Assembly: GCA_050692055.1 (NCBI GenBank)
Contig: JBOGTC010000075.1
Coordinates: 4,438 to 68,437, forward strand
DNA from: Candidatus Limnocylindria bacterium
Lineage (GTDB): Bacteria; Chloroflexota; Limnocylindria; QHBO01
Direction: 5' to 3'
Length of the DNA: 64,000 nt
Positions within the stretch are counted from its first letter, which is position 1, and every line of letters begins with the position of its first letter. The notes under the pieces were generated by a model. The model was not told where the DNA came from. It did no database searches and saw nothing but the letters and a program-made list of their open reading frames with translations. The translations under genes were made by a program, and so were the position numbers. Below, piece after piece: positions 37,447 to 56,589 of the stretch.

Positions 37447-37456
37447 GGCGATGCCG

Positions 37457-37972: not shown

Positions 37973-38011
37973 AGGGCGCGGTGTCGGCCGCGGAAGAGGA
38001 CTGATGCGTCA

Positions 38012-38464
38012 CTACCTGAAAGTGATCCTCGACGTGCCGTGCTCCTTCATCCACTTGGCGACGGCGCGTGGACCGGCACCCGACAGCCACGCGCCCTCGA
38101 CGAAACCGGCCAGCTCGTCCCGGCTCAGTTCGCCAATCCGCGAACCACGGAGCAGCACCGACGGGTGGCCGTCGAAGTGGGATGTCGTGAAGAACGGCAG
38201 GGACGCATCGGCCAGGATGGCTTCCTTCTCGAGCTCCGATGCCACCCAGAACACGATGACGTCGGTGTATCGCTCGCCCGTGTCGGGGTCGACCGCGTCC
38301 GGACGCGGGTTACGGAAGAACAGGAAGCTGCGACGGCTGACCTGGTAGACCGTCGGGCCACCGCCGGCCAGGGTCACGCCCGGCAGTGCACGCGCGATCT
38401 CGTGGATGTCGTCCACGGTCGCTGGACGCAAACCATCGGCGGCAGTCGCTCGGCGTCGGCCCAT
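38012..38464 (-). CDS. MmcQ/YjbR-family DNA-binding protein
   Basis: 150 aa. Resembles YjbR/MmcQ family (memory-based). Confidence 0.5.
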   Translation of the reverse strand: MGRRRATAADGLRPATVDDIHEIARALPGVTLAGGGPTVYQVSRRSFLFFRNPRPDAVDPDTGERYTDVIVFWVASELEKEAILADASLPFFTTSHFDGHPSVLLRGSRIGELSRDELAGFVEGAWLSGAGPRAVAKWMKEHGTSRITFR

Positions 38465-38499
38465 GCATGGATGCTACCAACCGACGTACGCTGTGCCGC

Positions 38500-39171
38500 A
38501 TGACCGATGCGCTGCGGGTGATCCTCGAGATCGGCACGAAGGGTCGCCGGGTCGTGGCGGCCGCGACCGACTGGCCTGGCCTCGATCGCTGGGGGAAGAC
38601 CGAGGACGACGCGCTGGAGAAGCTGTCGGGGTACCTCCCGCGCTACGCGGGCGTCGCCGTGCGGGCCGGCCTCGCGGACGCGTTCGAGCGCCAGCGCACG
38701 ATCGAGGTGATCGAGCAGTATCCCGGATCGAGCTCGACCGACTTCTGGGGCATCGCCCACGTGCCGTCGGAGACCGAGCGCGAGGTGCTGTCAGCGGCCG
38801 ACCTGGATCGACGGCTCGAGCTGCTGCAAGCCTGCTGGGCCCACTTCGACGACGTGGCCGCCCGCGTGTCCGAGGGCCTGGCGCCCGGCCCGCGGGGAGG
38901 CGGATGGACTCGCGACGAGATCATTCGCCACGTGTACGCGAACGAACCGGAGCAGTTCTCGCGCAAGGTCGAGGTCAGGACGCCGAAGGAGGTCGTGCTC
39001 ACCCAAGAGGGCCTCGCGACGCATCGGCAGGAATACACCGATGCCATCCGCGCCTACAACGCCGAGGGCAAGCCGGCGCGGACCTGGCCGATCCAGTTCC
39101 TGGTGCGCCGCACCGCTCACCACGTCATGGATCATGCCTGGGAACTGGAGGACCGGGACCTCACATCCTGA
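38500..39171 (+). CDS. DinB-like/HicB-like domain protein, hypothetical
   Basis: Internal ATG of ORF 38386..39171. No firm family. Confidence 0.45.
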   Translation: MTDALRVILEIGTKGRRVVAAATDWPGLDRWGKTEDDALEKLSGYLPRYAGVAVRAGLADAFERQRTIEVIEQYPGSSSTDFWGIAHVPSETEREVLSAADLDRRLELLQACWAHFDDVAARVSEGLAPGPRGGGWTRDEIIRHVYANEPEQFSRKVEVRTPKEVVLTQEGLATHRQEYTDAIRAYNAEGKPARTWPIQFLVRRTAHHVMDHAWELEDRDLTS

Positions 39172-39538
39172 GCCGACAATCAAGTACTGGTGCTGGAGGT
39201 GATGGCGGTGCGGTCGCCGTGCCATCTTCCCGCCTCCTGGGTGACCCAGCTCACACAGTGGCTCCCATGTCAAGCCGCGGGGCTGATCTCCGCGGGCATC
39301 GAGCACGCAGCGTTCGCTCAGCGGTGACGGCGCATCGGCGATCGAGCCGACCGACGGATCAACCCTCGTCGTACTCGAGAACAGATGAGTCATGGTCGCG
39401 AACCCTTCCGCCACACGGCTACCACTCGGCCGCCGATCGTATCAACGACCACCTCGATGACCCGATCGCCGAAGTGGTAGCGAGTGCGGATCTCGCGGGC
39501 AACATCGTGGTTGCCGCTCAGTAGACGGGACGCGGGCG

Positions 39539-40186
39539 TCAGAAGTTGGGCGGCGTAATCGCCGAGACGATCTCGGCCGGCTCATCGCCCACCGCACGCG
39601 CCTTGTGCGGCAGCCCCGAGTCGTAGTAGATGGAGTCGCCCTCGTTCAGCTCGTAGTCGACGTCCCCGACGGTCATCATCACCCGGCCGCTCAGAACCAG
39701 CGCGCACTCCTCGCCCTCATGGGCCATGGCGGCGCTGTCCAGTCCGGGCTTGAGGCGCACGATGATCATCTCGATCTTGCGGCGAAGATCCGGCGACACA
39801 AGCTCATAGGAGACCGGTGCCCCCGGCGGCCGGATCACCTTGCGTGAATCCTTGCGCACCACCATGCCATTCGCTTCAGGACCGGTGAACAGCAGGAAGA
39901 CCGGCACCTCCAGGGCAGCCGCGATGGAGCGGAGCACCATCAGCGACGGATATGCCACGCCGCGCTCCACGCCGCTCAGGAAGCTCCGCGTGATTCCGAC
40001 GCGCGCGGCCAAGCCGGTCAGCGTCAAACCGCGCTCCGTGCGCAGCGTTCGTATCCGCCGACCAAGCTGATCGTCTCGCTCAACCGGCGGCGACTTCGGT
40101 TCGCGCCGTGGAGCATCCCGGCCAGACACACGACGGGCTGCCGATCGGTTGGGAGAAGACGTTTTGCCTGACTGGCGCGTCGACAT
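39539..40186 (-). CDS. XRE-family HTH + cupin-domain transcriptional regulator
   Basis: LGRRIRTLRTERGLTLTGLAARVGITRSFLSGVERG HTH, C-terminal cupin (EGEECALVLSGRVMMTVGDVDYELNEGDSIYYDSGLPH). Disordered N-terminus. Confidence 0.7.
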   Translation of the reverse strand: MSTRQSGKTSSPNRSAARRVSGRDAPRREPKSPPVERDDQLGRRIRTLRTERGLTLTGLAARVGITRSFLSGVERGVAYPSLMVLRSIAAALEVPVFLLFTGPEANGMVVRKDSRKVIRPPGAPVSYELVSPDLRRKIEMIIVRLKPGLDSAAMAHEGEECALVLSGRVMMTVGDVDYELNEGDSIYYDSGLPHKARAVGDEPAEIVSAITPPNF

Positions 40187-40196
40187 GGCTATTGAG

Positions 40197-41228
40197 TCAG
40201 CGGGGGCCGATAGCGGCGGGTGTTACCTCGACACCGTACTTCTTCTTGAGGTACGGCAGCACCTCCTTGCGGCACACGTCAGCCACGAGGAACGGATCCG
40301 GGCTCATGTCCGCCCAGATCAGGTGGTTGCATCCCGCGTCGATGAAGCGCTCGAACTGCGCGATGATCTCCTCCCCGGAAGAGGCGATACAGAACGCGGC
40401 CCGCATCGCCTCATCGCGGACGAGAAGCGCCCGCTGCTCGATGATCCGCGGGTCCTCGATGTACGCGTATGCCTCCGGGATGAGCAGGCCACCGTAGACC
40501 CGTGCGCCGTCGAGGGCACGCTCCGTGTTCGGGTGGTATGACGTGCTCACCCAGGCCGTCCTGAAGCGGCTCTCATCGGTTCGGCCCGACTCGCTTCGCC
40601 CGTCGTCGAACGCGGGCTGCATGACGTTCTGGTGGACGTCCGGTGGGATTCCCACAGAGACGTAGCCATCGGTCATCAGACCCGCATTGCGCGCCATCTT
40701 CGGCCCACCTGCGGCACAGATGATCGAGATGTCGGTGGTCGGCTTCTGGTACAGGTAGAAGAACGATCTGAAGTACTTCCCCTTGTGGCGGAAGTAGTCC
40801 GGTTCCGCCCAGCAGCGCTTGATCAGCTCGATCCCTTCCAGCAGCCGCTCGATCCGTTCACGAAGCGGCGGCCAGAAGCCGGTCGTGGTCTTCTCGTTCA
40901 TCGCCTCGCCCGTGCCCACGCCGAGCGCCACGCGCCCGGGGTAGAGGAGCTCCAACGTGGCGATCTCGATGGCGACATCGACCGGATGGTGGCGGATCCC
41001 GATGGGCGGCAGCACCATCGGTCCCACAATTGCTCGCTCGGTGTTGGCCAGGAAGGCGGTGAGCGTTGCCCAGATGCCGGCCGAGTGGCCGGAGCTATGC
41101 TGCCAGGGAAGCGTGTGATCGCCCTCCCAGATGTAGTCGAAGCCCGCCTCCTCCAGGTCGCGGACGCGTCGCACGTTGTCGCGCACGTCGTGACAGAGGC
41201 ACTCCGGCGAGATGCCGAACGTGATCAC
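40197..41228 (-). CDS. LLM-class (luciferase-like) flavin/F420-dependent oxidoreductase
   Basis: GTG start overlapping upstream stop (GTGA). TIM-barrel LLM signatures. The N-terminal 99 aa of the track ORF overlaps the ester-cyclase gene in another frame. Confidence 0.75.
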   Translation of the reverse strand: MITFGISPECLCHDVRDNVRRVRDLEEAGFDYIWEGDHTLPWQHSSGHSAGIWATLTAFLANTERAIVGPMVLPPIGIRHHPVDVAIEIATLELLYPGRVALGVGTGEAMNEKTTTGFWPPLRERIERLLEGIELIKRCWAEPDYFRHKGKYFRSFFYLYQKPTTDISIICAAGGPKMARNAGLMTDGYVSVGIPPDVHQNVMQPAFDDGRSESGRTDESRFRTAWVSTSYHPNTERALDGARVYGGLLIPEAYAYIEDPRIIEQRALLVRDEAMRAAFCIASSGEEIIAQFERFIDAGCNHLIWADMSPDPFLVADVCRKEVLPYLKKKYGVEVTPAAIGPR

Positions 41229-41641
41229 TGCGCGGCCGCGGAGAGCGGAAGGCCGAGCTGCCCGAACAGGGAGGCCGAGTCGTAGTAGACGGTCTCGCGC
41301 GTGAACAGCTCGCCGTTGTGCTCGTAGACCGATACGGCCGGGATGCGGAAGGCCCTGCCGGTGGGTGGATGCTCCAGGAACGTGCCGGTGTGCGTGCCCA
41401 GCAGGTCGTACTCGGCGACCACCAGACGGCCCTCCGAAATCACGCGCCCGATTTCGATTCGCAGGTCCGGGAACCCACGGTAGAAGATGGCCATGAACTC
41501 GCGCATCTCCTCCTTGCCGTGACACGGCGTCGTGGACACATCGTGGAAGAACACGTCATCGGTGTAGTAGTCCAGCACCGCCTGGAGGTCGCCGCGGCTG
41601 AGATCCTCGATCTCGTTACGGACAAGCTGCGCTGCGTCCAC
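41225..41641 (-). CDS. Ester cyclase/SnoaL-like polyketide cyclase family protein
   Basis: GTG after GAGGAGG. YYTDDVFFHD...MREFMAIFYRGFPDLRIEIGRVISEGRLVVAEYDLLGTHTG...PPTGRAFRIPAVSVYEHNGELFTRETVYYDSASLFGQLG matches the ester-cyclase consensus. Confidence 0.65.
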   Translation of the reverse strand: MDAAQLVRNEIEDLSRGDLQAVLDYYTDDVFFHDVSTTPCHGKEEMREFMAIFYRGFPDLRIEIGRVISEGRLVVAEYDLLGTHTGTFLEHPPTGRAFRIPAVSVYEHNGELFTRETVYYDSASLFGQLGLPLSAAAQ

Positions 41642-42557
41642 CGCCGGCCTCCTCTGTGCTGAGACCCAGGAGCCGTGCCGCTGCCCCACCGAAGAAGCTA
41701 TCGACGTCCTCCTGGGTGATGAATGGCTCGATCTCGTGGCGCTCCGTGTAGGCCGCCACCTTGCCGAACTGCTCCTGGCCGGTCTGGAACGGCACATAGG
41801 GATAGTCGGAGCCCCACAGCAAACGGTTCATCACACCCAGCTTCTTGGCCCATGACCAGATCTGCGCCACCCGCCAGACGGGCGCGGACTCCGCCCAGAA
41901 GGCGAAGTCCCCGTAGACCTGGCGGTACTTCGCGATGAAGTGCAGGGCCTCCTCGGCCCAGTGAAAGCCGGTGTGGCCGATGATCAGCTTGAGGTCCGGG
42001 AAGTCGATCATCACGTCCTCGAGGTAGAGCGGATGGTCGTACTCGAGCATCTTCCCCTTGGGGAGCATGCTCCACCCGGTGTGGACCAGGACGGGGACGT
42101 TCGTCGCCTGCGCGGCCTCGTAGAGGGGCCAGATACGCCGATCATGCACGCCGACGTAGTTGTAGGACGGCAGCATCTTCAGTCCCCTGAGCCCCTGCTT
42201 CTGAACGCCGCGCTCGAACCGCTTGACCTCCTCGGGCCCGCCCAACGGATCGGCCGTGTAGAAGCCGATCAGCCGGTCAGGATAGGCCTCTACCATGGAC
42301 TGCACATACTCGCCCGCATTCGGGTCATAAGCGTTCCACGGGATATACCCGACGCCGAGTACCACCGCCTTGTCGATCCCACACTCATCCATGTCGGCGA
42401 TGAGCCGCTCGGGCGGCACGCAGAAGTCCTCGGCGCGCCACGGCTTGCCGGTGTGCCAGCAGGTCTGCCCCTCGAACATATCGACGTAGAACTGCCCGAG
42501 CTCGGGGGGAAAGTCGACCCCGAACCGCATCATGTGAGTGTGGGTGTTGATGATCAT
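41616..42557 (-). CDS. Amidohydrolase-2 family metal-dependent hydrolase (TIM barrel)
   Basis: ATG (MIINTHTHMM) after AGGAG. HxH at N-terminus, later HTGW, HTGFHWAEE, GSDYPY motifs. Confidence 0.7.
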   Translation of the reverse strand: MIINTHTHMMRFGVDFPPELGQFYVDMFEGQTCWHTGKPWRAEDFCVPPERLIADMDECGIDKAVVLGVGYIPWNAYDPNAGEYVQSMVEAYPDRLIGFYTADPLGGPEEVKRFERGVQKQGLRGLKMLPSYNYVGVHDRRIWPLYEAAQATNVPVLVHTGWSMLPKGKMLEYDHPLYLEDVMIDFPDLKLIIGHTGFHWAEEALHFIAKYRQVYGDFAFWAESAPVWRVAQIWSWAKKLGVMNRLLWGSDYPYVPFQTGQEQFGKVAAYTERHEIEPFITQEDVDSFFGGAAARLLGLSTEEAGGGRSAACP

Positions 42558-42567
42558 TCGGCTGCTC

Positions 42568-44223
42568 CTATGCGTCGGATGCTCCGCGACGGAGAACGTT
42601 GCCGGCGCGAAGCTGTGAGTCGACGGCCCCGTGGCGCACCACGATGTCGCCGTTGACCAGGACGTACTCGATGCCGGCCGGCGAAGCGGACGGCTCCTGG
42701 TAGGTCGTGCGGTCGGCGACCGTATCCGCATCGAACACCACCACGTCCGCGGCGTAGCCGTCCTCGATGCGGCCCCTGGAGCGAAGTCCCATGCGCTGGG
42801 CCGGCAGTGAGGTCATCTTCCGGACGGCCTCCTCGAGGCTGAAGAGGCCCGTATCTCGAGCGAAGTGTCCCAGGACCCTCGGAAATGCCCCGTATGCCGC
42901 GGGATGCGGCACTCCTCGCCCGGTGAGAATCGCATCCGTCTCGATCGACGCCCACGGATGCTGCAGCAGCTTCCGCAGCCCCGAGTCGTCCTCGAGGTCA
43001 CCGGAGACGCCGATGTACAGTGCCATGGCGTGCCCGTTCTCCTCGAGGACGATATCGGCCGCGACGTCGAAGGCATCGGTCCCGCGCTCCTCCGCGATCT
43101 GAGGCAGCGACTTGCCTTCGAGGTTCTTGTTTTCCGCTGATTCGACCCAGAGCAGGCTGATGTTGTCCCAGCCCGTTGCCTCGCACAGGTTGTGCGGCCA
43201 GGCGCCCGGGATCCAGCACGGCCAGCCTGGAATGTCCTCGTCGATCGAGCGCCGTATGCGTTGCCGCTGAGCCGGATCGCGGAGCCGTGCCAACAGGGCG
43301 TCGACGCCACCGGACAGCGCCCAGGGTGGAAAGATGGCCAGCAGCGTGGTATTTGCCGCGACGTACGGAATGACGTCGAAGCCGGTGTCAACGCCGCGCT
43401 CGTGAGCGCGCTCGTGCAGCTCAATGATCGCGTCGATCTTCGGCCAGTGCGGCTTGCCGAACGCCTCGATGTGGGAGTGCTGGCAGGTCACGCCGTTCAC
43501 CTCTCCGACCCGGATCACCTCCTTCGTAGCCGAGAGCAGCGTCTCACTCGAGCCGCGAATGTGGCTGGTGTAGATGCCGTCGTACCGCTTCAGGCCTGCG
43601 GCCAACGCTTCGATCTCCTCGGGCGGAGCGAAGATTCCTGGCGCGTAGAGGAGACCGCTGGAGAGTCCGAACGCGCCCTCCTCGAGCGATCGCTCGAGGT
43701 TGCTCTTCATCCGTTCCTGCTCGTCGGGCTCGAGGAATCGACCCTGGAACCCGACCTCGTGTATGCGCAGGGCCCCATGGGCGACAAGCGGCACGACGTT
43801 CAGCGCCACGCCTCGCTCGTCCAGGTAGCCCAGATACTCGCCGAACGAGCTCCAGGAGCTCGGGAGGTCGGGCCCACGGAGGAAGGCCGTGTAGCTCGCC
43901 AGCTCGCCCGCCGTCTCGGGGTTCACCGGTGCCGGCGAGTACCCGCAGTTGCCGGAGACGATCGTGGTGATCCCCTGGCCCAGGAACGGGGCGAGGATCT
44001 CGCCGTGCTCCTCCACGGGAACCAGGAAATCACTGTGCGAGTGGATATCGATGAACCCCGGGGCCACGACCGACCCCGCGACGTCGAGCCGTTCCGCGGC
44101 ATCAGCGGACCCCAGGTCGCCGATCGCCGCGATGCGGCCATTCGAGACTCCGACATCCGCGGCAACGGACGGCCCGCCCGTCCCATCGACGAGCCGACCG
44201 CCTTGAATCACCAGGTCGAGCAT
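42568..44223 (-). CDS. N-acyl-D-amino-acid deacylase (D-aminoacylase) family amidohydrolase
   Basis: 551 aa. PGFIDIHSHSD, SGNCGYSP and other D-aminoacylase signatures. Confidence 0.8.
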   Translation of the reverse strand: MLDLVIQGGRLVDGTGGPSVAADVGVSNGRIAAIGDLGSADAAERLDVAGSVVAPGFIDIHSHSDFLVPVEEHGEILAPFLGQGITTIVSGNCGYSPAPVNPETAGELASYTAFLRGPDLPSSWSSFGEYLGYLDERGVALNVVPLVAHGALRIHEVGFQGRFLEPDEQERMKSNLERSLEEGAFGLSSGLLYAPGIFAPPEEIEALAAGLKRYDGIYTSHIRGSSETLLSATKEVIRVGEVNGVTCQHSHIEAFGKPHWPKIDAIIELHERAHERGVDTGFDVIPYVAANTTLLAIFPPWALSGGVDALLARLRDPAQRQRIRRSIDEDIPGWPCWIPGAWPHNLCEATGWDNISLLWVESAENKNLEGKSLPQIAEERGTDAFDVAADIVLEENGHAMALYIGVSGDLEDDSGLRKLLQHPWASIETDAILTGRGVPHPAAYGAFPRVLGHFARDTGLFSLEEAVRKMTSLPAQRMGLRSRGRIEDGYAADVVVFDADTVADRTTYQEPSASPAGIEYVLVNGDIVVRHGAVDSQLRAGNVLRRGASDA

Positions 44224-44262
44224 CGCTCCGCCTCACTGCCTATTCGGTCTGGTAGCGGGAAG

Positions 44263-45675
44263 TCACATGCCTGGGTTGTCCTCGAGGAACTGGTCGATCT
44301 CGCCCTGCGCGCGTTGATGCTCCCCTTCGACATCTGCACCGTGCAGCGCCGCCGAGACGGCTGCCTCCACGATCTCCGAGATGCGCTGGTAGCCGGCACG
44401 CGTCCCGTACCGTTGGTTGTTGATGTCTTCCTGTGCCTGGTCGAACGTGACATCCACGATCTCCCGGTCGGCCTCGGGAATCGACGAGTCGTCATACGGG
44501 GACGTGAACGATGGATAGCCGCTCTCGTCCGCGGGGTCAAAGGCGTGGAGCTCTTCACGGCGGGTCAGCAGACCCAGCTGGGTCTCTGCGTTGGCGTAGT
44601 GCTTTACCAGCTCCAGGGCGAGCTCCTTGCGCGGGCTTGTCTGGGGAATGGCGAAGCACTCGCCCACCGACTGGCCACCGGATCGGGGCAGGTCACCGCC
44701 CTTGCCCGGGATAATGGCAACCCGCACTGGATCGTCACCCAACACCGAAAGGTTTGGGTCGCGCGCCTGGTACCACAGGTGCTGGTAGTCGATCATCATC
44801 GCCGCATCGCCCGCCATGAAGACCTTCTTCGCCTCCACGTCGTAGATCCCCCATGGCGACTCGATGCTGTCCGCCGGCATGAAGGGCAGCAGGTCGATCA
44901 TGTCCTGCGTGGCCTGCATGGCCTCCGGGGTGTCGAAGTTGACGCTGCCATCGTCGCCGTAGAACTCGCCGCCGTTGAGGTGCAGCCAGACGCACCACTT
45001 CGGGAAGAGGTACAACGGCGCCCAGCCGTCGACGTAGCCGAACTGTGAGTTGGCCGTGAACTCTTGGGCCGCCGCCACGAATTCGTCGTACGTGGTGGGA
45101 ATGGCGATCCCCGCATCCTCGAACTTCTGCCGGTTGCAGAAGAGGACGTAGGTGTAGATGTTGCTCGGGCCGCCGTACCAGACGCCGCTGCTCGACTGCG
45201 CCGCCTCAATCGCCTCCCATCGCAGCTGCGACTCATCTGGCTGCTCGTAGCCGCTGATCTCGGTCAGTGGGGTGAGGAACTGCTCGTACTGATCCACCCA
45301 GGCGCGCCAGAGGTAGACGACGTCCCATGACTCGCCGCCGGCCTCGAAGGCTGGCGTGAGGACGGACGGCAATGGCCCGAAGGCTTCCCGAGTGAACTCG
45401 ACCGTTGCGTTGTGCTGCTGCTCGAACTCCGGTGTGATCATCGCGTAGTAGCCGGTGTGGTTTGCGAGCAGCACCCTCAGAGTGGTCGGCGGCCCCGCGG
45501 CTGTGCCGGTCGGGGATGCGGTCGTGGTGACACCGCAGGCGGCCAGGAGGGGACCAAGGCCCATGACCCCCACAACGCCTCCCCCAAGCTGGGCGCCGCG
45601 CTTGAGGAAACGACGGCGCGAGTACCGTGTCACGAGGGAACGCTGCCAGGGAGCACGCGGATCCTGTTCGTTCAT
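44263..45675 (-). CDS. ABC transporter substrate-binding protein (family 1) with Tat signal/lipobox
   Basis: SRRRFLKRGAQLGGGVVGVMGLGPLLAAC twin-arginine signal. Confidence 0.8.
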   Translation of the reverse strand: MNEQDPRAPWQRSLVTRYSRRRFLKRGAQLGGGVVGVMGLGPLLAACGVTTTASPTGTAAGPPTTLRVLLANHTGYYAMITPEFEQQHNATVEFTREAFGPLPSVLTPAFEAGGESWDVVYLWRAWVDQYEQFLTPLTEISGYEQPDESQLRWEAIEAAQSSSGVWYGGPSNIYTYVLFCNRQKFEDAGIAIPTTYDEFVAAAQEFTANSQFGYVDGWAPLYLFPKWCVWLHLNGGEFYGDDGSVNFDTPEAMQATQDMIDLLPFMPADSIESPWGIYDVEAKKVFMAGDAAMMIDYQHLWYQARDPNLSVLGDDPVRVAIIPGKGGDLPRSGGQSVGECFAIPQTSPRKELALELVKHYANAETQLGLLTRREELHAFDPADESGYPSFTSPYDDSSIPEADREIVDVTFDQAQEDINNQRYGTRAGYQRISEIVEAAVSAALHGADVEGEHQRAQGEIDQFLEDNPGM

Positions 45676-45728
45676 CCTTTTCTCTCCTCCGAAATCTGGC
45701 CGATGTGGACTGCGAGCGACCCTTGTCC

Positions 45729-46730
45729 TTACTTCATTGCCCCCTCCCCAATCCCACGAATCAGGTAGCGCTGCATGCCGAGCGCGAGGACCAGTACCGG
45801 GATCGAGGCGATCAGCCCAGCCGCGGACAGCTGCGGCTCGATCCGGTTGATCGGGTCCATGAGATTGACGATGCTGGGCGCGAGCATCGGCGTGCTGCTT
45901 ACCGACAGCACTCGGGATACGAGGAGCTCATTCCACGACAGGACAAACGCAAAGACGGCGGTTGTCGCGACGCTCGGCACGGTCAGGGGCAGGACCACGC
46001 GCCGGAGCGCGTCGAAGCGGCCCGCCCCATCGATCCGTGCCGCATGCTCGATCTCCGGTTCGACGCCCTCGAAGGCGCTGACGAGCAGCCACGTGACCAG
46101 CGGCGTGATCAGCGCCATGTGGCCCAGGATCATCCCCGGCAGCGTGTCGACCAATCCCACCGTCCGAAAGATCGCCACCAGTGGAACGAGCAGCGCAATG
46201 CCGGGAAGCATGTAGATCACCATCACGCTGGTGTAGACCGCCCGTCTCCCGGGGAACCGGAGTGATGCGATGGCATAGGCGCCGAGCAGCGCGATCAGGG
46301 TGGTCAGGGTTGCCGCCGTGGTCGACACGAGGAGGCTGTTTCGAAGCCCCGCCGACAGGTAGGCGATGTTGAAGAGACGTGCGTACTGGTCGAGGTTGGG
46401 TTGGGGTGGAATGGCATGCGGGCCGCTCAGAAGATCAACCGGGCGCTGCAGCGAGCCGAGGACTACCACGACGACGAACGGGACGGCGATGATGAGGAAG
46501 ACGAGGACGGCCAGCGTCGCCGCCACGACTCGGGACCCCATCCCGATGTGAAGCCCGTTGAGGCCCCGCCACACCAATGTCAGTCCGACCGCGGTCCCCA
46601 CGATCCAGGCCCAGAACGGAAACGGCCAATCGAAGACCAGCAGGCTCAGCTCGAGGACAGCGACGACGACGATGATCAACCCACCGGCCCAGGCGATCAG
46701 GCGCGAACGGCGACCGTCCGGTTGGCTCAT
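45729..46730 (-). CDS. ABC transporter permease (MalG-like)
   Basis: ATG overlapping upstream stop (ATGA). EAA loop HAARIDGAGRFDALRRVVLP. Confidence 0.8.
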   Translation of the reverse strand: MSQPDGRRSRLIAWAGGLIIVVVAVLELSLLVFDWPFPFWAWIVGTAVGLTLVWRGLNGLHIGMGSRVVAATLAVLVFLIIAVPFVVVVVLGSLQRPVDLLSGPHAIPPQPNLDQYARLFNIAYLSAGLRNSLLVSTTAATLTTLIALLGAYAIASLRFPGRRAVYTSVMVIYMLPGIALLVPLVAIFRTVGLVDTLPGMILGHMALITPLVTWLLVSAFEGVEPEIEHAARIDGAGRFDALRRVVLPLTVPSVATTAVFAFVLSWNELLVSRVLSVSSTPMLAPSIVNLMDPINRIEPQLSAAGLIASIPVLVLALGMQRYLIRGIGEGAMK

Positions 46731-47653
46731 GACAATCTCAGCGACCGGCCGCCGCGGGTGAGCACCAACCCGAACAGGACGATGATTCCCGCCACCACGT
46801 AGGCCAGCACCGCCCCGTAGCCCAGGTTCGTGTGCTCGAAGCTCGTCTTGAATGCGTAGAAGTACAGGTTGTAGGTCGAATAGGCGCCGGGGCCGCCACC
46901 GGTGAGGGCGAAGATGAGATCGAACAGCTGGACCGTGACAAGGAGCTGGACGATGAGCGCCACACCGATCGTGGGCAGGAGGAACGGAAGGATCACGTAG
47001 CGGAAGCGGCGCCAACTGTTCGCGCCGTCGATCTGCGCCGCGTGCACGGTCTCGCGCGGGAGGTACTGCAGGCTCACCAGGAAGATCAGGGCGAGCAGTG
47101 GGAACGTCTTCCAGACGTGGATTCCAACCAATGTGTAGAGGGTCCCGGGCACGCCGCTGAAGAACGACGGGGCCGTCTCCATCACACCCAGCTGCTGCAG
47201 CCAGGGTCCGAGCAGGCCACGGCGACCGTCAAGGAACCACTGGAACATCGCCGCCACCACGACCGGCGGCAGCGCCCACGGGATCAGCAGGCTTGCCCGG
47301 ACGAGCGTGCGGCCCGGGAACTGCTGGTTGAGGGCCAGCGCCACGCCCATGCCGATTGCGACGCCCAGCACGCACGAGGGAACGACGTACATCACGGTCT
47401 GTACCAGCGACTGGGCGAAGAGCGGATCGGCGGCCAGCCGCGCCCAGTTCGCAAGGCCCACCCACTCTCGCTGGCCTGCAGACCCCGCGGTCAGAGTGAG
47501 GGATATCGAGAACAGCAGCGGGTACAGGATCAGCGCCACGACCAACAGGACCGTCGGCGCCAGGAACATGCCGGCATAGGCATGGTTCTCCCGGCGGATC
47601 GGCAACCGGCTGATCCAGCTGCCTCGTCGCGCCGCCATCTCTGCGCCGCTCAT
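46727..47653 (-). CDS. ABC transporter permease (MalF-like)
   Basis: ATG overlapping ATPase stop (ATGA). EAA loop HAAQIDGANSWRRFRYVILP. Confidence 0.8.
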   Translation of the reverse strand: MSGAEMAARRGSWISRLPIRRENHAYAGMFLAPTVLLVVALILYPLLFSISLTLTAGSAGQREWVGLANWARLAADPLFAQSLVQTVMYVVPSCVLGVAIGMGVALALNQQFPGRTLVRASLLIPWALPPVVVAAMFQWFLDGRRGLLGPWLQQLGVMETAPSFFSGVPGTLYTLVGIHVWKTFPLLALIFLVSLQYLPRETVHAAQIDGANSWRRFRYVILPFLLPTIGVALIVQLLVTVQLFDLIFALTGGGPGAYSTYNLYFYAFKTSFEHTNLGYGAVLAYVVAGIIVLFGLVLTRGGRSLRLS

Positions 47654-48795
47654 GTCGTTCGCACTGGCTCGTCGGCGGGTGTGCGCCCTTCGGCCCACAC
47701 GCCCTCCAGCCGCCGCTCGCTGCTCGGGTCGAAGAAGTGGAGGGAGCCAACGGCAAAGCGGAGCACGACCGGATCGCCGCGCTGCAGCTGTGCGCCGTCC
47801 TCGGCGAGCGCTCGGATCGACCAGCCATCCAGGTCCGCTGTCACGTAGCTATGGGGCGGCACCACCTCAGTGAGAGTCACGGTGGCGTGCAGGCCGGGGC
47901 CAGGGCCGTCAGCCGCGCGAGCCAGCACTGATTCGGGGCGGAAGCCAATCAGCACCGTGCCGTCCGGCGGGCGAAATCCGGGGGCTCGCGACCCGAGATC
48001 GATCTCGATCCCGTTGTCACCACGTACGACGACGGCGCCTGAGTCGTCCCAGACGACCCCGGTGAGGAAGTTCATCGGCAGCCTGCCGAGGAAGGAGGCC
48101 ACGAAGCGGTCCGCGGGTCGGTTGTAGACGAGATGCGGCGTATCGGTCTGGTGGATGTGGCCGGCGGCCATCACCACGACCTCGTCCCCCATCGCCGAGG
48201 CGTCGTCCTGGTCGTGAGTGACGTAGATGAACGTCGCCTTGAGAGCCGCGTGGATCCGCTTCAGCTCCTCGCGGGTCTGCATGCGGAGGTTCGCGTCCAG
48301 GTTGCTGATTGGCTCGTCGAGCAGGAACACCTTCGGCTCGCGCACGATCGCGCGCCCCAGGGCGACGCGCTGGCGCTCGCCGCCGCTCAGCTGTCTCGGA
48401 TGCCGGTCCAGCGTCGGGCCGATGCCCAGCATTGCCGCGACCTCATCGACACGGCGATACCGCTCCGGTCGCGACATGCCGCGCAGCTGGAGAGGAAAGG
48501 CGATGTTGTCCCGCGCGCTCATGTTCGGATACAGGGCGTATGACTGGAAGACCATCGCCACGTCCCGACGCTCGGGGGTGACGTTGGTGACGTCAACGCC
48601 GTCGAACAGGATCCGGCCCGAGGTCACCTCCTCGATACCGGCAAGCAGCTTGAGGATGGTGCTCTTGCCCGAACCGGACGGCCCCAGGACGCAGGTGAAG
48701 AGACCGTCCTTGAAGATCAACGAGGTCTCCTGGAGCGCGTCAGCGCTCAGGCCGCGATAACGCTTGACAACACGATCCAGCCGTACCTCAGCCAC
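47650..48795 (-). CDS. ABC transporter ATP-binding protein (MalK/UgpC-type with C-terminal TOBE-like domain)
   Basis: GTG after GGAGGAG. Walker A GPSGSGKST, LSGGERQRVALGRA signature. Confidence 0.8.
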   Translation of the reverse strand: MAEVRLDRVVKRYRGLSADALQETSLIFKDGLFTCVLGPSGSGKSTILKLLAGIEEVTSGRILFDGVDVTNVTPERRDVAMVFQSYALYPNMSARDNIAFPLQLRGMSRPERYRRVDEVAAMLGIGPTLDRHPRQLSGGERQRVALGRAIVREPKVFLLDEPISNLDANLRMQTREELKRIHAALKATFIYVTHDQDDASAMGDEVVVMAAGHIHQTDTPHLVYNRPADRFVASFLGRLPMNFLTGVVWDDSGAVVVRGDNGIEIDLGSRAPGFRPPDGTVLIGFRPESVLARAADGPGPGLHATVTLTEVVPPHSYVTADLDGWSIRALAEDGAQLQRGDPVVLRFAVGSLHFFDPSSERRLEGVWAEGRTPADEPVRTT

Positions 48796-50221
48796 CGGCT
48801 CCTCCGGTCGCCGTCGCGACCGCGCCCCGGTCGCGGCTCGCAGTGAGTTGAGCCCACTCCTTCTGAACGCGTTCGGGACCGACGTGCAGGTCTTCGGAGA
48901 GGTACTGGACCTCGAAGTCCTCCAGGGCCCGGTGGCCTGCACGCACGGCAATCCGTCGGAGATAGGAGCGGCGCAGGAGGTCCAGGTCGACCTCCGTGAG
49001 ACCCATCTCCTCGACTCCACGAGGGATGACGATTCGCCGGCCGGGAAGGTCCGCGTCGCGCGTGCCCGTGGTCACCTCGATGCCCAGCTGACGAGCCAGG
49101 GTCAGCTGCGCGGTCGGATGCTTGCCGGCTCCGGTGTACTCGGTCTCCTGGACGACGATGATCTCGTCCTCGCCGTACTCACGCGCCAGAACCATGGCCG
49201 CGGCGAGCGACGTGTTTCCCGCCGGTCCGCGTTCGAGTCCCTCGAGATCGGCGAGTAGCTGCGTCGCGTAGAACACCTCGCCCTGCGTGACGGTCACGTA
49301 CCGATCCAGGTAGCGCAGCCCGCGGGCGGCGTTGCGCGGGACGTCCACGCGATCCGGGTCCACGCTGAAGGGAAAACCGAATCCCGTGTGCCCGGTCGTG
49401 AAGGACTTCCGGTTGAAGTGCCTATCGCTCGCCATGTGCAGGCCGGTCAGATCGACGCTTGCCCCGATGACGATCGTGCCGGCCGCCCCGGCGCTCCGCA
49501 GCCCACGCGCGGTTCCCGTGACATTCCCACCGCCCGAGTGCGTGATCACCGCGGCCGCCGGCGCACGGCCAAAGCGCTGCTGGCATTCGGTGCCGATCTC
49601 GTGGCCGAGCGTCTCAATGCCCAAAGTGGCGTACGGCGTGTAGAGGCTTGCGTTGAAGTAGCCGGTCTCCTCCAGCAGGCGTAGCTGGATGTAGAAGAGC
49701 TCGGGCCCAACCGTGAGCTGCCAGACCTCGGCCCCGTAGGCCTCGCATGCCCGGGTCTTCTCCAGGACCTCGGGCTGGCCGCGACCCTGTGAGTCAAAGA
49801 CCTCTTGGAGGATGAGCGCCCTGAGCCCGTAGATCGCGGCCTGCGAAGCCACGGCGGCTCCGTAGTTCCCGGATGTCGCGGCGATGACTCCCTCGAATCC
49901 GCCCTCGGCGGCCTGCGCCAGGCACAGCGAGGCGCGTCGCGCCTTGAAGCTGCCGGCGGCGTTGGCGGCCTCGTCCTTCACGACGATCCGGGCGCCATGT
50001 CCGGCCGGCGAGGATCGCCTTACCAGCTCGCTGATGCGGCTGAGCTCCCAGAGCGGCGTATCCCCCACCTTGTGGGCGGCCTGGATCCGGCGCACGTCCT
50101 CGATGGCGTATGGCGGGCTCGTGGCCAGGCCCTCGTAGTCGAAGGCGATGCCGCCGGGCTGTTCGTACCGCGCGTAGTCGATACCGGCTGAACGCCGCAT
50201 GATCTCGCCCCGGCGAGCCAT
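48788..50221 (-). CDS. PLP-dependent tryptophan-synthase-beta-fold enzyme, OrtB-like (2-amino-4-ketopentanoate thiolase beta subunit homologue)
   Basis: Internal ATG of ORF 48788..50506. Fold-type II PLP enzyme features. Immediately follows the OrtA-like gene. Assignment from recalled family features, not a search. Confidence 0.5.
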   Translation of the reverse strand: MARRGEIMRRSAGIDYARYEQPGGIAFDYEGLATSPPYAIEDVRRIQAAHKVGDTPLWELSRISELVRRSSPAGHGARIVVKDEAANAAGSFKARRASLCLAQAAEGGFEGVIAATSGNYGAAVASQAAIYGLRALILQEVFDSQGRGQPEVLEKTRACEAYGAEVWQLTVGPELFYIQLRLLEETGYFNASLYTPYATLGIETLGHEIGTECQQRFGRAPAAAVITHSGGGNVTGTARGLRSAGAAGTIVIGASVDLTGLHMASDRHFNRKSFTTGHTGFGFPFSVDPDRVDVPRNAARGLRYLDRYVTVTQGEVFYATQLLADLEGLERGPAGNTSLAAAMVLAREYGEDEIIVVQETEYTGAGKHPTAQLTLARQLGIEVTTGTRDADLPGRRIVIPRGVEEMGLTEVDLDLLRRSYLRRIAVRAGHRALEDFEVQYLSEDLHVGPERVQKEWAQLTASRDRGAVATATGGAGG

Positions 50222-50243
50222 GATGGCCTCGTATGAGGACCGA

Positions 50244-50603
50244 TCAGCGCTCACCGCGAGGTGGCCCTTCGAGGGAATGGCGGGCTTCCCGGCCCAGCGC
50301 GAGAAGCTCCGGGATAGGGTTGCCAAAGTCGGCGGAGTTGCGCGGATTGACCGCGGTGAGGCGCCCGCTGACCTGGCGTCCGGCGAGCGTACGGATTGTC
50401 GCTTCGGCGTCCATCGATGCATCGGCAAGCAGAAAGCCGCGGATACGGGCCAGGAAGTCAACTGCGGCCGTATCGGCCGGAATATTGGGTGCGCGTTCGC
50501 CGGCACGGAGGACGATCTGCTGGACCTCGACCCACGACCCGGCCGGGACGCGGTCGCCCTCGGCTGGTGGCATCTGAGAATCCAACGACCCCTCCGAATC
50601 CAT
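50244..50603 (-). CDS. OrtA-like small subunit (2-amino-4-ketopentanoate thiolase alpha subunit homologue)
   Basis: 119 aa. VQQIVLRAGERAPNIPADT...VNPRNSADFGNPIPELLALG resembles OrtA (memory-based). Confidence 0.5.
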   Translation of the reverse strand: MDSEGSLDSQMPPAEGDRVPAGSWVEVQQIVLRAGERAPNIPADTAAVDFLARIRGFLLADASMDAEATIRTLAGRQVSGRLTAVNPRNSADFGNPIPELLALGREARHSLEGPPRGER

Positions 50604-50703
50604 TCCGTTCGGTCGTTCTGGGTGTCACGTACGATATCGCGCTCGTGGCTCTTGCGTCAACGCATACAGTACAAGCTGAGAAGCGCACGGAGGACAGATT
50701 CAA

Positions 50704-52071
50704 GTGTCGGCAGTGGCGCAGAACCAGGCCCTGGCGTCCCTTTCTGAAGAGCTCCGAGGGCCACTCGTCCTTCCCGGCAGTGACGGTTACGAGGCCGCCA
50801 GGCTGGTGTTCAACGGGATGATCGACCGCCGGCCCGAGCTGATCGCCCAGTGCCGCGGGGCCTCCGACGTCAAGGCGGTGATCGACTACGCGCGCGCTCA
50901 TGATCTCCCCGTCGCGGTCCGCGGCGGCGGCCACAACGTGGCGGGCCACGGGACATGCGACGGCGGCGTGCTCATCGACTTCTCGGGCATGCGCACCGTG
51001 CGCGTGGATGCGCATTCGAACACGGTTCGCGCCGATCCAGGCTGCAACTGGGTCGACTTCGACGTCGAGAACGCCGTTCACGGCCTCGCAACGACGGGCG
51101 GGACGGTCGGCAGCACCGGCATCGCGGGGCTGACTCTCGGGGGCGGCCTGGGATTCCTGATGGGGTCGTACGGGCTGACCTGCGACAATCTCGTTTCCGC
51201 CGACCTGGTCACGGCATCGGGGGAGGTCCTGACGGTCAGCGAGCGAGACAATGCGGATCTCTTCTGGGGCATCCGCGGAGGCGGCGGCAACTTCGGCGTG
51301 GCGACCTCCTTCGAGTACCAACTGCACCCGGTCGGCACGCTGCTCGCCGGACTCGTGCTGTACGCGGAGGACGTTGCCCGCCAGGCGCTCGAGCTGTTCC
51401 GCGAGGTCTGTTCGACGGCGCCCGACGAGCTCTCGTGCGCATTCGTCATGCTGACGCTGCCTGACGGGCCGAAGGTGGCCGCCATCGCCGCCTGCTACAA
51501 CGGCCCGATCCCCGATGGTGAGCGCCTGGTGGAGCCGCTTCGCACGCTTGGACCGCCGGTGGATGACGGCATCCGACCGATGCGCTACCCCGAGGTACAG
51601 CGCATCTTCGCGGAGATCCCGTTCGGGCTGCACAACTACTGGAAGGGCCACTTCCTCCGCGAGATGACCGATGACGTCGTGAGCGCCACGATGGAGGCAT
51701 TCGACACGATGACCTCCGAGCATTCGGCCATCCTGATCGAGGCCCCGCACGGAGCCGTGGGCCGCGTCCTCGCCGACGCCACCGCCTTCGGGCAGCGTGA
51801 TGCTCGCTTCAACGCAAGCGCGCTCGCAATCTGGGAGCCCTCAGAGGATCCGGACCGCCATGTCGAATGGAGCCGCACCTACGCCGACGCCATCGCTCCG
51901 TTTGCCAGCGGTGGCTACTTCAACTATCTGGGCCACGACGCATCCGCGGACGACGTCGCGGCCGCGTTCGGCCAGGAGCGCTTCAAGCGCCTGGTGAACC
52001 TGAAGACGAAATACGACCCGACCAACATGTTCCGGTTCAACCAGAACATCCGGCCGGCGACGGCAGGATGA
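50704..52071 (+). CDS. FAD-binding (VAO/BBE-type) oxidoreductase
   Basis: VAVRGGGHNVAGHG FAD-binding PCMH motif. 455 aa. Confidence 0.75.
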   Translation: MSAVAQNQALASLSEELRGPLVLPGSDGYEAARLVFNGMIDRRPELIAQCRGASDVKAVIDYARAHDLPVAVRGGGHNVAGHGTCDGGVLIDFSGMRTVRVDAHSNTVRADPGCNWVDFDVENAVHGLATTGGTVGSTGIAGLTLGGGLGFLMGSYGLTCDNLVSADLVTASGEVLTVSERDNADLFWGIRGGGGNFGVATSFEYQLHPVGTLLAGLVLYAEDVARQALELFREVCSTAPDELSCAFVMLTLPDGPKVAAIAACYNGPIPDGERLVEPLRTLGPPVDDGIRPMRYPEVQRIFAEIPFGLHNYWKGHFLREMTDDVVSATMEAFDTMTSEHSAILIEAPHGAVGRVLADATAFGQRDARFNASALAIWEPSEDPDRHVEWSRTYADAIAPFASGGYFNYLGHDASADDVAAAFGQERFKRLVNLKTKYDPTNMFRFNQNIRPATAG

Positions 52072-52173
52072 GGTTCGGCCTCCACCTGCCGAACTTCGGC
52101 CCGGCCGGGGATCCTGCGGTCCTCGCAGCGGTACGTTCTCGACAGCGACTGGGGTGAGGTTCAGCCCCGTCGT

Positions 52174-53205
52174 TCAGCTACGCGGCGTCACCAACGGAAG
52201 CACCTCCTCGGCGAGGATGCGACGCGACTCTGCGGCGACGGCTGGATCCAGCCCTGGGAAATGGGCGCGAGCGACGTAGGTCCCGTGCTCGCTGAGTACC
52301 CCGGCGTACTCCAGGATTCGCTCCGTCACCTCCTCGGGCGTACCGGTGATCACCTGTCCGCGCAGCCGCTCGTCGTCCTGCGCAGACATCGCCGGCGGCC
52401 GCCTCCGCTCGCGTGACCCGCGCGCCGTGGCCATGTCGGCGTACTTCCAGCTCATGTACCAGGCGGCATCGCGCACGCGCTCCCAAGCGTCGCCGTCGCG
52501 CCAGGCGAAAGTGGGCCGATAAAGGTTGGCGGTGATCGCGTCCGGGTCACGGCCGGCCGCCAGCGCCTCCTCTTGGACCCACGACATGCGCCGCGCGAGC
52601 CCGTCGGGCGATGCGGGCCCGGCAAAGTAGCCGTCCGCCAGGCGACCCACGCGTCGGACGGCGGGCTCGGCACCCGCGCCGAGCCAGATCGGCGGCCCGC
52701 CGGCCCGTGCCGGCTTGGGCGTCACGTGGAGCCCGTCGTAGCGATAATGCCGTTCGTCGCCCGTGACGAGGCCGTCCGACCAGGCCTGTCGCAGCACCGC
52801 CAAATGGCCCTCGAGCCGGGAGCCGCGCTCGCGCATCGGTACGCCGAAGGCGTCGAACTCCTCCTCCCGCCAGCCGATCCCGAGCCCGAGGATGAGGCGC
52901 CCGCCGGAGATGAGGTCGACCGTCGCGGCGTCCTCCGCCAGATGAAGCGGATCAAACATCGGGGCCAGGAGCACCCCGGTCCCGAGCCGGATGCGCGAGG
53001 TCCGGGCCGCGATGGCGGCGAGCAGCGGCAGCTGCGAGGGCATGTAGCCGTCGTCGACGAAGTGGTGCTCACTGGTCCAGACCGAGTCGAACCCGGCCGC
53101 CTCGACCTCCACGGCCATCTCGATCGCCTCGCGGTAGAGCTCCACATCGGTGCGCGGGTCGTCCGGGTGGTGCTGCGCCGTCAGGTAGCCGTAGCCGAGT
53201 CGCAT
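52174..53205 (-). CDS. LLM-class flavin/F420-dependent oxidoreductase
   Basis: 343 aa luciferase-like TIM barrel (ILGLGIGWREEEF). Confidence 0.8.
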   Translation of the reverse strand: MRLGYGYLTAQHHPDDPRTDVELYREAIEMAVEVEAAGFDSVWTSEHHFVDDGYMPSQLPLLAAIAARTSRIRLGTGVLLAPMFDPLHLAEDAATVDLISGGRLILGLGIGWREEEFDAFGVPMRERGSRLEGHLAVLRQAWSDGLVTGDERHYRYDGLHVTPKPARAGGPPIWLGAGAEPAVRRVGRLADGYFAGPASPDGLARRMSWVQEEALAAGRDPDAITANLYRPTFAWRDGDAWERVRDAAWYMSWKYADMATARGSRERRRPPAMSAQDDERLRGQVITGTPEEVTERILEYAGVLSEHGTYVARAHFPGLDPAVAAESRRILAEEVLPLVTPRS

Positions 53206-53244
53206 CTCAACAGACTACCCGGCTCGACTGGCGCCGAGCATCCG

Positions 53245-56514: not shown

Positions 56515-56589
56515 GGAACCAATCTGAGGCTGGCTCGTGACAGCTTGTATGGCGCAATAGTCAGTGCGATCGTCCGGGCCGATCCGAGG

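Follow-up and report, generated by a model that had tools for sequence, protein, structure and literature searches.

A 64,000-nucleotide stretch of contig JBOGTC010000075.1 from a Candidatus Limnocylindria bacterium (Chloroflexota), here called the window, carries an operon of eleven genes that opens with ortA and ortB, predicted to encode the two subunits of 2-amino-4-ketopentanoate (AKP) thiolase. The eleven genes and a flanking, divergently transcribed oxidase gene are one functional, co-regulated unit. Its end enzyme is known. The conserved module that feeds this enzyme is new, and one of its members belongs to an amidohydrolase subfamily that has been mis-annotated. The substrate of OrtAB is a D-configured amino acid (EC 2.3.1.263), and two feeders of the enzyme are known: ornithine aminomutase with Ord, and the glycyl-radical enzyme HplG. 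The unit is read here, with a probability of roughly 0.4, as an uptake-and-catabolism operon that ends in OrtAB and provides a third feeder route, from an N-acylated amino-sugar-like compound.

So far, OrtAB has been taken to indicate ornithine fermentation in anaerobes, and a first-pass annotation of the window, made by a model from the sequence alone, named only that context for it. However, AKP is also formed from trans-4-hydroxy-D-proline by HplG (PMC13450708). Literature searches showed no OrtAB outside ornithine, Clostridioides difficile or HplG contexts and nothing on the present cluster, in line with the earlier suggestion of an undescribed pathway. With an essentially unchanged core, OrtAB is encoded at the head of operons in Chloroflexota and Actinomycetota of aerobic type, and a further version of such operons occurs in Desulfobacterota, Dehalococcoidia and Bacillota; the feeders differ in each case. 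At least one widespread environmental compound appears to be broken down via AKP or a close analogue by a previously unrecognised route, and annotating “ornithine degradation” from ortAB alone is unsafe.

Thiolase genes and operon structure

The assignment of OrtA and OrtB was checked by hidden Markov model search. OrtA reaches 103 bits on NF040739 (cut-off 70) and matches PF22010 at 1.8e-29, and OrtB scores 715 bits on NF040741 (equivalog cut-off 550), which places both subunits above the NCBIfam equivalog cut-offs. The first-pass annotation, which had proposed this assignment, had also named beforehand what would overturn it, namely an OrtB belonging to another pyridoxal phosphate (PLP) enzyme family and a small gene lacking OrtA similarity. 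Neither was found, as models of threonine synthase, cysteine synthase and dehydratases give OrtB no more than 56 bits. Its closest PDB match is a threonine synthase (3.5e-11), and the PDB holds no near relative. Judged by these models, the window encodes a genuine OrtAB thiolase pair.

The gene ortA lies immediately upstream of ortB, with an overlap of 11 nt. For both genes the start of the longest open reading frame (ORF) probably differs from the true start. The likely start of ortA is TTG 50585, 5 nt after a GGAGG, which yields 113 aa; this choice rests on the conservation of the GGAGG in relatives and on the length of their OrtA (112-113 aa). The likely start of ortB is GTG 50254 (488 aa), an in-frame codon homologous to the one at which relatives start, and the alternative, ATG 50221 (477 aa), is the public gene call for an identical protein.

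Conserved columns of canonical OrtB were defined from 52 sequences in ornithine context (type I) at a threshold of at least 93%, and 181 of the 194 are retained in the window protein, as in its Chloroflexota clade. The 13 altered columns are mostly conservative, except for two changes to Arg, one from Asn and one from Pro, and OrtB from Desulfobacterota, Bacillota and Thermoleophilia keeps nearly all 194. Furthermore, genomic contexts interleave in a neighbour-joining tree of OrtB. Together, the retained columns and the interleaved contexts argue that OrtB chemistry is the same everywhere, and the same two observations leave a divergent paralogue with a new substrate unsupported. Chloroflexota-clade-specific changes were seen at the otherwise invariant sites 62, 388 and 33 (Asn to Arg, Pro to Arg and Met to Ala, numbered on the 477-aa form from ATG 50221), and these might reflect a slightly different acyl group or partner contact.

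Ornithine-pathway context was absent, as the first-pass annotation had stated: tblastn with Ord, OraS, OraE, Or-4 and Orr gave no match anywhere in the 64 kb window (61-72% G+C). Third-position G+C profiles, ORF lists and domain searches instead delineate eleven consecutive co-directional genes on the minus strand at 39539-50603 (Table 1). With the refined starts of ortA and ortB, six of the ten junctions overlap (by 11, 8, 4, 4, 26 and 4 nt) and the other four are gaps of 53, 39, 10 and 10 nt, the two longest of which contain Shine-Dalgarno-like sequences. The start of the ATP-binding cassette (ABC) ATPase gene overlaps the stop of ortB by 8 nt (GTGGCTGA). All eleven genes claimed earlier are present, and their description as one tightly coupled operon is borne out by the six overlapping junctions and a single promoter match. 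The statement that most junctions are ATGA/GTGA overlaps stands for overlap in general, since literal ATGA/GTGA overlaps occur at just three, and a cluster size of eleven is too small, as the FAD-binding BBE-type oxidase and probably the second luciferase-like (LLM) enzyme bring it to 12-13 genes. Terminator-like matches were no commoner than in shuffled sequence.

The sole sigma-70-like promoter match in these 13.3 kb (39000-52300) lies on the minus strand upstream of ortA (TTGACG-18-TATCGT, 50660-50631), with the -35 element at 50660-50655 and the -10 element at 50636-50631. Inverted half-sites, GTACTGTAT (50672-50664) and ATATCGTAC (50637-50629), flank or overlap it. The 51-nt core that contains them (50673-50623), within the 100-nt divergent intergenic region, is nearly invariant across nine Chloroflexota loci, and its flanks diverge. 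The motif GTACnnTAT occurs three times in the window, two occurrences being the inverted pair upstream of ortA. The remaining copy, at 6145, is single and has no inverted partner. In the ortA leader, a 16-nt imperfect palindrome (50584-50617, 75% complementary) spans ATG 50603 and the GGAGG, and could fold as a hairpin over the ribosome-binding site.

The regulator gene of the operon encodes an XRE-cupin protein that matches the NCBIfam PuuR model at 3.9e-21, below its cut-off. The conserved block is predicted to be the operator of this protein, which would probably repress the shared divergent promoter via the GTACnnTAT inverted pair until a metabolite of the pathway binds the cupin domain. 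The earlier description of the cluster as being “under an XRE-cupin regulator” was correct as to the presence of the gene and imprecise as to its position, which is last in the operon and not upstream. The link that had been drawn to the divergent FAD oxidase is confirmed, given that its gene has the 100-nt control region in common with the operon and lies inside the operon at rearranged loci. Genes flanking the unit vary from locus to locus, which indicates that the unit is self-contained.

Feeder enzymes and recurrence of the cluster

The amidohydrolase Amh3 has PDB matches to Bb3285 (8.8e-80), D-aminoacylase (9e-78) and PpOngB (1.7e-61). With the D-aminoacylase AfDam (1M7J) and the N-acyl-D-glutamate deacylase Bb3285 (3GIP) it shares the fold, the metal ligands (HxH, Cys, His and His), the catalytic Asp and the oxyanion Tyr (Tyr192), and its conserved motifs are IDIHSHSD, GNCG, SH (220), SH (250) and TDA. 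It differs from them in falling below the family cut-off (193 bits on PRK09061, cut-off 340), in being approximately 65-70 aa longer and in the residues of a carboxylate-binding triad. Residues ~296-366 are unmatched, and this stretch, which begins past residue 295, adjoins the substrate-recognition insertion domain.

In AfDam, Lys252, Tyr283 and Arg377 (Lys254, Tyr285 and Arg379 in OngB) bind the α-carboxylate of the substrate, and these residues are strictly conserved in AfDam-, BbDam- and OngB-like enzymes (PMC12017989). HMMER alignments place Glu, Ile and Ala at the three positions in Amh3. The combination Glu, Ile or Phe, and Ala was found in 16 of 17 aligned copies, including every OrtAB-linked copy examined; the exception, a 33% identical paralogue at locus L042 beside a canonical ornithine cluster, keeps Lys, Tyr and Arg. 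In OngB, Ser292 and Gln298 contact the hydroxyl groups of the sugar; in Amh3 the equivalent of Ser292 is Thr, and the region of Gln298 is unalignable, the alignment to D-aminoacylases stopping there. Amh3 is publicly annotated as an N-acyl-D-amino-acid deacylase. The first-pass annotation used the same name, which cannot be upheld, as all three α-carboxylate-binding residues are replaced and the score lies below the subfamily cut-off. On the loss of the triad, both a classical D-aminoacylase and an OngB-type deacetylase of C1-oxidised N-acetylglucosamine (GlcNAc1A) were rejected, and thus an N-acyl-D-amino acid is an unlikely substrate. From these residues, we infer a distinct amidohydrolase subfamily whose substrate would lack a carboxylate beside the amide nitrogen. 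The subfamily is now mislabelled as D-aminoacylase; where D-aminoacylases have the Lys/Tyr/Arg triad, its members can be told apart by the motifs H-x-E, D-V-I-P-Y and PHPA.

The best solved relative of LLM1 is the F420-dependent secondary-alcohol dehydrogenase Adf (2.5e-55), followed by FGD (4e-45). LLM1 has the LLM fold of both enzymes and keeps the catalytic His40, Trp44 and Glu109 (motifs GDHtlPWqH and GTGEAMNE, aligned with FGD and Adf). It differs from FGD in the phosphate pocket, where Lys198, Lys259 and Arg283 of FGD1 correspond to Ile, Tyr and Ala. It also misses the cut-offs of TIGR03554 (155 bits, cut-off 420) and TIGR03557. Without this pocket, glucose-6-phosphate is excluded as a substrate, and the substrate should therefore be an unphosphorylated alcohol or hemiacetal.

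The other candidate feeder enzymes are less specific in their matches. Amh2 belongs to PF04909, a family that holds lactonases, decarboxylases and hydratases. The SnoaL-like protein has generic PDB neighbours only (a “predicted ester cyclase” and SnoL) and is of the type of cofactor-free isomerases, dehydratases or cyclases. The divergently encoded flavoprotein has FAD_binding_4 and BBE domains, with VRGGGH at residues 72-77 and GGGH for covalent FAD at His77, and no signal peptide was found in it. LLM2 scores 194 bits on TIGR03619 (cut-off 167); an LLM gene of its ORF cluster adjoins the system in L001, L004/L005, L007 and L010, and LLM2 is probably an accessory member.

The importer comprises an SBP_bac_1 lipoprotein, two BPD_transp_1 permeases and a MalK/UgpC-like ATPase, the composition of CUT1-type systems. 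The N-terminus of the binding protein carries a twin-arginine motif (SRRRFLK) and an LAAC lipobox. PotA and PotC are also among the matches of the ATPase and permeases, but the binding protein has PDB matches, all weak, to sugar-binding proteins only and to none that bind polyamines. A polyamine-type transporter was rejected on this ground, and the matches make a sugar-type importer more likely.

Comparison of gene neighbourhoods supports the cluster described by the first-pass annotation. With one genome per species, 80 OrtB loci were surveyed and their neighbouring ORFs clustered; approximately 52 are in canonical ornithine context (e.g., L041, where NCBIfam confirmed Ord, OraE, Or-4 and Orr, and OraS had no match). 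The gene set of the window recurs in approximately 13 independent Chloroflexota loci at OrtB identities of 66-86%, and is thus not a chance arrangement. Window-like sets occur in L001, L002, L006-L011 and L086. In L004/L005 the set is unchanged and rearranged, with Amh2-SnoaL-LLM1 inverted, the regulator upstream and the BBE oxidase inside the operon after Amh3, and L091 has another gene order and no BBE oxidase. At most of the Chloroflexota loci this oxidase is beside or inside the cluster.

The pairing of Amh3 and LLM1 extends beyond these gene sets. Amh3 (58-65% identity) and LLM1 (71-77%) recur with OrtAB in L087, L088 and L091. L087 and L088 keep the window-type transporter (binding protein 53-56%), Amh3 (58-59%) and LLM1 (71%), and in them the peptidase-like families M28 and M24, the family c44 and a HapK-like small protein replace Amh2, SnoaL and the oxidase of the window. 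In F420-using lineages, Amh3 is always accompanied by LLM1. At two loci without OrtAB (L089 3432-15081 and L090 3756-10527), an Amh3-LLM1 pair with the same triad signature (59-60% and 71%) is found together with RidA, GFO/MocA oxidoreductases, an RraA-like aldolase, Amidohydro_2, an amidase and a PepX-like hydrolase, joined in L089 only by an FGGY kinase and a fold-type-III D-serine-dehydratase-like enzyme. These two loci appear to encode an Ong-like route that is undescribed in its own right. As the pair occurs with either end module, its product should be usable by a D-amino-acid deaminase/aldolase route or by OrtAB, and a D-2-amino acid similar to the amino-sugar acids is thus indicated.

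Desulfobacterota, Dehalococcoidia and Bacillota contribute further variants (L070, L073, L076, L080, L083 and L014), which hold some or all of XRE-cupin, OrtA, OrtB, Amh3, one or two SnoaL proteins, M28 peptidase, c44, c68, alanine racemase, flavodoxin, alanine dehydrogenase and a Liv-type ABC system. Since alanine racemase and alanine dehydrogenase follow the module in these phyla, D-alanine fits as an OrtAB product. The variation among clusters, with OrtAB or deaminase/aldolase ends and with peptidases or Amidohydro_2/BBE accessories, offers a tractable path to the substrate.

Proposed route and competing explanations

The following order of steps is proposed for the third feeder route. The CUT1-type importer would bring in a sugar-like N-acylated amino compound, from which Amh3 would strip the acyl group; the carbon beside the amide nitrogen would carry no carboxylate, as at C1 of an N-acetyl-amino-sugar. 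LLM1 would then oxidise a non-phosphorylated hydroxyl or hemiacetal with F420, and Amh2, probably acting as a lactonase, would release a D-2-amino acid by hydrolysis of the product. Conversion of this acid into a (2R)-2-amino-4-oxo acid, which is the weakest step, might fall to the SnoaL-like protein, the EncM-like flavoprotein and LLM2. Finally, OrtAB and coenzyme A (CoA) are predicted to cleave C3-C4, giving D-alanine and acetyl-CoA or a close acyl-CoA. On chemical reasoning, a 2-amino-3-deoxy-4-oxo acid is a tautomer of the β-elimination product of a 2-amino-3,4-dihydroxy acid, and a PLP enzyme could in principle reach a 2-amino-4-oxo acid without a separate dehydratase. A wider formulation, in which OrtAB is a portable end module that is joined to unrelated feeders in different bacteria, here to a previously unknown, oxygen-compatible F420/FAD pathway from an N-acylated amino sugar or carboxylate-free amide via a D-2-amino acid to D-alanine and acyl-CoA, is put forward tentatively and as rather doubtful. 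If true, the pathway would parallel the deaminase/aldolase routes for sugar acids, but retain the amino group and conserve energy.

A described pathway of similar logic is the Ong pathway for GlcNAc1A, which employs the deacetylase OngB, the fold-type-III PLP deaminase OngC, the RidA protein OngD and KdgK (PMC9537276). Both begin with a deacylase of the D-aminoacylase fold, followed by a PLP enzyme of D-amino-acid type, and relatives of the Amh3-LLM1 cluster contain a fold-type-III dehydratase, RidA, a sugar kinase and an aldolase. However, Amh3 lacks the Lys/Tyr/Arg with which OngB binds the carboxylate of GlcNAc1A and has Thr where OngB needs Ser292. The PLP enzyme of the window is a fold-type-II thiolase, with which the amino group would be retained and an acyl-CoA made, so that a thioester is conserved and no deaminase or aldolase is involved. 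In the non-phosphorylative deoxy-sugar “route III”, a 2,4-diketo-3-deoxy acid is hydrolysed to pyruvate and lactate or glycolate. The proposed pathway would resemble it in the sequence of dehydrogenase, lactonase and C3-C4 cleavage of a 3-deoxy-4-oxo acid, and differ in having an amino and not a keto group at position 2 and in a thiolytic cleavage to alanine and acyl-CoA. With the HplG route it would share the feeding of AKP, and hence OrtAB, from a non-ornithine source through a D-configured intermediate. In contrast to that route, neither the window nor the annotated related loci showed a glycyl-radical enzyme or activase, and the window enzymes tolerate or require oxygen (BBE oxidase).

Several observations weigh against an amino-sugar-like substrate, and the main difficulty is the carbon count. 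The near-identical OrtB active site argues for AKP itself, a C5 methyl ketone that is not obtainable from common hexosamines. Nor does any cluster enzyme obviously turn a 2-amino-2-deoxy-aldonate into a compound with the 3-deoxy-4-oxo pattern. The nearest matches of the BBE protein are EncM (1e-101) and 6-hydroxy-D-nicotine oxidase (6HDNO; 3.9e-56), not carbohydrate oxidases. For Amh2, the best solved relative is the uncharacterised BB4693 (3e-13), with ACMSD and LigW at ~1e-6 only. In Desulfobacterota, Dehalococcoidia and Bacillota, moreover, the core of Amh3, SnoaL and OrtAB is accompanied by M28/M24 peptidases and a Liv-type ABC system and by no redox enzyme, which looks more peptide-like. 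Ectoine-like rings, lactams, N-acyl homoserine lactone analogues, kynurenine, Amadori compounds, mycothiol and siderophore units were also considered as substrates and dropped, no supporting gene being found for any of them.

The peptide-like character of these relatives is the starting point of an unlikely alternative, in which AKP derives from a peptide-like or amide-linked C5 amino-acid precursor (a hydroxyproline or γ-functionalised norvaline unit from small peptides) and not from a sugar. The hydrolases would free the amino acid, LLM1 and the flavoprotein would convert it to AKP in a radical-free and oxygen-tolerant manner, and OrtAB would finish. Relatives of types II and IV pair OrtAB and Amh3 with M28 aminopeptidase-like and M24 prolidase/creatinase-like proteins and Liv-type transport, and because they have no redox enzyme, their precursor should already be as oxidised as AKP. 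The conservation of OrtB points to AKP proper, the best solved relative of LLM1 is a secondary-alcohol dehydrogenase, and among the relatives of the BBE protein is 6HDNO, which oxidises a pyrrolidine C-N bond. Hydroxyproline is also an isomer of AKP, which arises from trans-4-hydroxy-D-proline (PMC13450708). Against this, none of the loci was seen to hold a proline/hydroxyproline epimerase or a known C-N cleaving enzyme. To our knowledge, non-radical reductive C5-N cleavage has no known mechanism. The window version of the cluster is without M28, M24 and c44, its binding protein matches sugar binders only, and the Amh3-LLM1 pair also occurs in an Ong-like, sugar-acid-type cluster. The first-pass annotation had favoured import of an N-acyl-D-amino acid, deacylation by a D-aminoacylase and oxidation of the free D-amino acid to a 4-oxo acid for OrtAB. 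The best matches of Amh3 (N-acyl-D-glutamate deacylase and D-aminoacylase), its public annotation and the D-configured substrate of OrtAB all speak for such a scheme, which is nevertheless quite improbable, as the carboxylate triad is replaced throughout the OrtAB-linked subfamily, at one position by an acidic residue, and Amh3 is both longer by those ~65-70 aa and below the NCBIfam subfamily cut-off.

Ordinary ornithine/2,4-diaminopentanoate catabolism, with feeder genes elsewhere in the genome and an unrelated transporter/hydrolase operon as neighbour, would account for the likeness to the canonical cluster (ord-ortA-ortB-oraS-oraE-or4-orr). That cluster has the same terminal OrtA/OrtB, recognised by the same equivalog models, and its OrtB is 57-64% identical to that of the window, which keeps 93% of the conserved columns. 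Yet ortA and ortB open the operon, ortB overlaps the transporter ATPase gene, and the link with Amh3, LLM1, SnoaL and XRE-cupin persists where the genes are rearranged and is found again in at least four phyla. D-ornithine aminomutase requires adenosylcobalamin, and no gene of this kind is linked to the operon. Ord, OraSE and Orr are likewise missing from the 64 kb. In place of the B12/PLP aminomutase, 2,4-diaminopentanoate dehydrogenase and ornithine racemase, the window has an ABC importer, two amidohydrolases, a SnoaL-like protein, two F420-type LLM enzymes and an FAD oxidase, and its host belongs to an aerobic-type soil or freshwater lineage of Chloroflexota and is no fermenter. On this evidence, an ornithine origin is highly improbable. 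Least weight of all is given to the biosynthetic direction, in which OrtAB would condense D-alanine and acetyl-CoA to an AKP building block for tailoring by the EncM-like, SnoaL-like and LLM enzymes. EncM-like flavoproteins, SnoaL-like cyclases and LLM enzymes are typical tailoring enzymes of natural products, and the alanine racemase and alanine dehydrogenase of relatives could equally supply D-alanine. However, thiolytic cleavage is the favoured direction of thiolases, the XRE-cupin arrangement is typical of substrate-induced catabolic operons, and a binding-protein-dependent ABC system is an importer. Each cluster variant has two or three hydrolases, and no polyketide synthase, nonribosomal peptide synthetase, ligase or exporter was found.

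Features of the window and variant loci

Table 1. Genes and control region of the OrtAB unit, in window coordinates.
Feature	Position	Strand	Evidence
ortA, small subunit of 2-amino-4-oxopentanoate thiolase	50244..50603 (likely start TTG 50585)	-	PF22010, NF040739
ortB, PLP-dependent large subunit	48788..50254	-	NF040741
ABC ATPase, UgpC/MalK type with C-terminal TOBE/OB domain	47650..48795	-	ABC_tran, TOBE_2, OB_MalK; UgpC 8.5e-107
ABC permease 1, MalF/UgpA-like	46727..47653	-	BPD_transp_1; ATGA overlap
ABC permease 2, MalG/GlcU-like	45729..46730	-	BPD_transp_1; ATGA overlap
Solute-binding lipoprotein, SBP_bac_1 / CUT1 type	44263..45675	-	Pfam SBP_bac_1, SBP_bac_8
Amh3, Amidohydro_3 metallo-amidohydrolase, D-aminoacylase-fold variant	42568..44223	-	PDB matches, residue mapping
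Amh2, Amidohydro_2 metal-dependent hydrolase	41616..42557	-	PF04909 2.1e-37
SnoaL-like NTF2-fold protein	41225..41641	-	PF07366 1.4e-23; 26-nt overlap with Amh2 gene
LLM1, F420-type luciferase-like alcohol dehydrogenase (predicted)	40197..41228	-	PDB matches; GTGA overlap with SnoaL gene
XRE-helix-turn-helix + cupin regulator, PuuR-like architecture	39539..40186	-	HTH_31, HTH_3, Cupin_2
Promoter/operator block (predicted), 51-nt core in 100-nt divergent intergenic region	50623..50673	-	Conservation, promoter scan
FAD_binding_4/BBE flavoprotein, divergent	50704..52071	+	Pfam, EncM match, GGGH motif
LLM2, second F420-type LLM oxidoreductase, probably accessory	52174..53205	-	TIGR03619

Among the variant loci, the c44 family lies next to ortA/ortB in several phyla (L087 6774-7676, L088 10919-11872, L073 9044-9880 and L076 14412-15248) and has 134 database matches, the public entries being hypothetical proteins only. 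No Pfam or NCBIfam match was found for c44. Its AlphaFold2 model has a pLDDT of 87, and Foldseek gave weak similarity to V4R/H-NOX/MopR-sensor-like folds (TM-scores 0.3-0.5). Its paralogue c68 (L076 18853-19461) has faint DUF6125 and ATC-hydrolase matches. In their variants, c44 and c68 may be a key AKP-forming or ligand-handling component. Two further OrtB loci have no ornithine-pathway genes nearby. In Neobacillus niacini (L012 9639-12742), a class-III aminotransferase gene directly follows ortB, and this locus is another OrtAB feeder type. In a Burkholderiales metagenome-assembled genome (L060 9657-12351), a beta-aspartyl-peptidase-like gene occupies that place.

Downstream of the operon, approximately 2 kb (37450-39530) are filled with overlapping ORFs of high third-position G+C on both strands (37457-37972 and 38012-38464 on the minus strand, 38386-39171 and 37451-38503 on the plus strand), for which no Pfam match was found. 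A second SnoaL_2-domain protein (35124-35561) and a zinc-type alcohol dehydrogenase/quinone oxidoreductase (36472-37446) are encoded 2-4 kb away on the opposite strand, and neither gene is kept beside the cluster in relatives. The same is true of a plus-strand ORF on the other side (52573-54654), which has GH31/melibiase-like TIM-barrel matches from residue ~394 on only. This gene probably starts later, because its 5' part overlaps the minus-strand LLM2 gene. Further along are genes for a metallo-beta-lactamase and helix-hairpin-helix protein (54985-56514), an HNH endonuclease (56590-57516) and an IS481-family transposase (61292-62242). The G+C content falls to 0.61-0.66 beyond 58 kb, and 54985-62242 may be a mobile or recently acquired segment.

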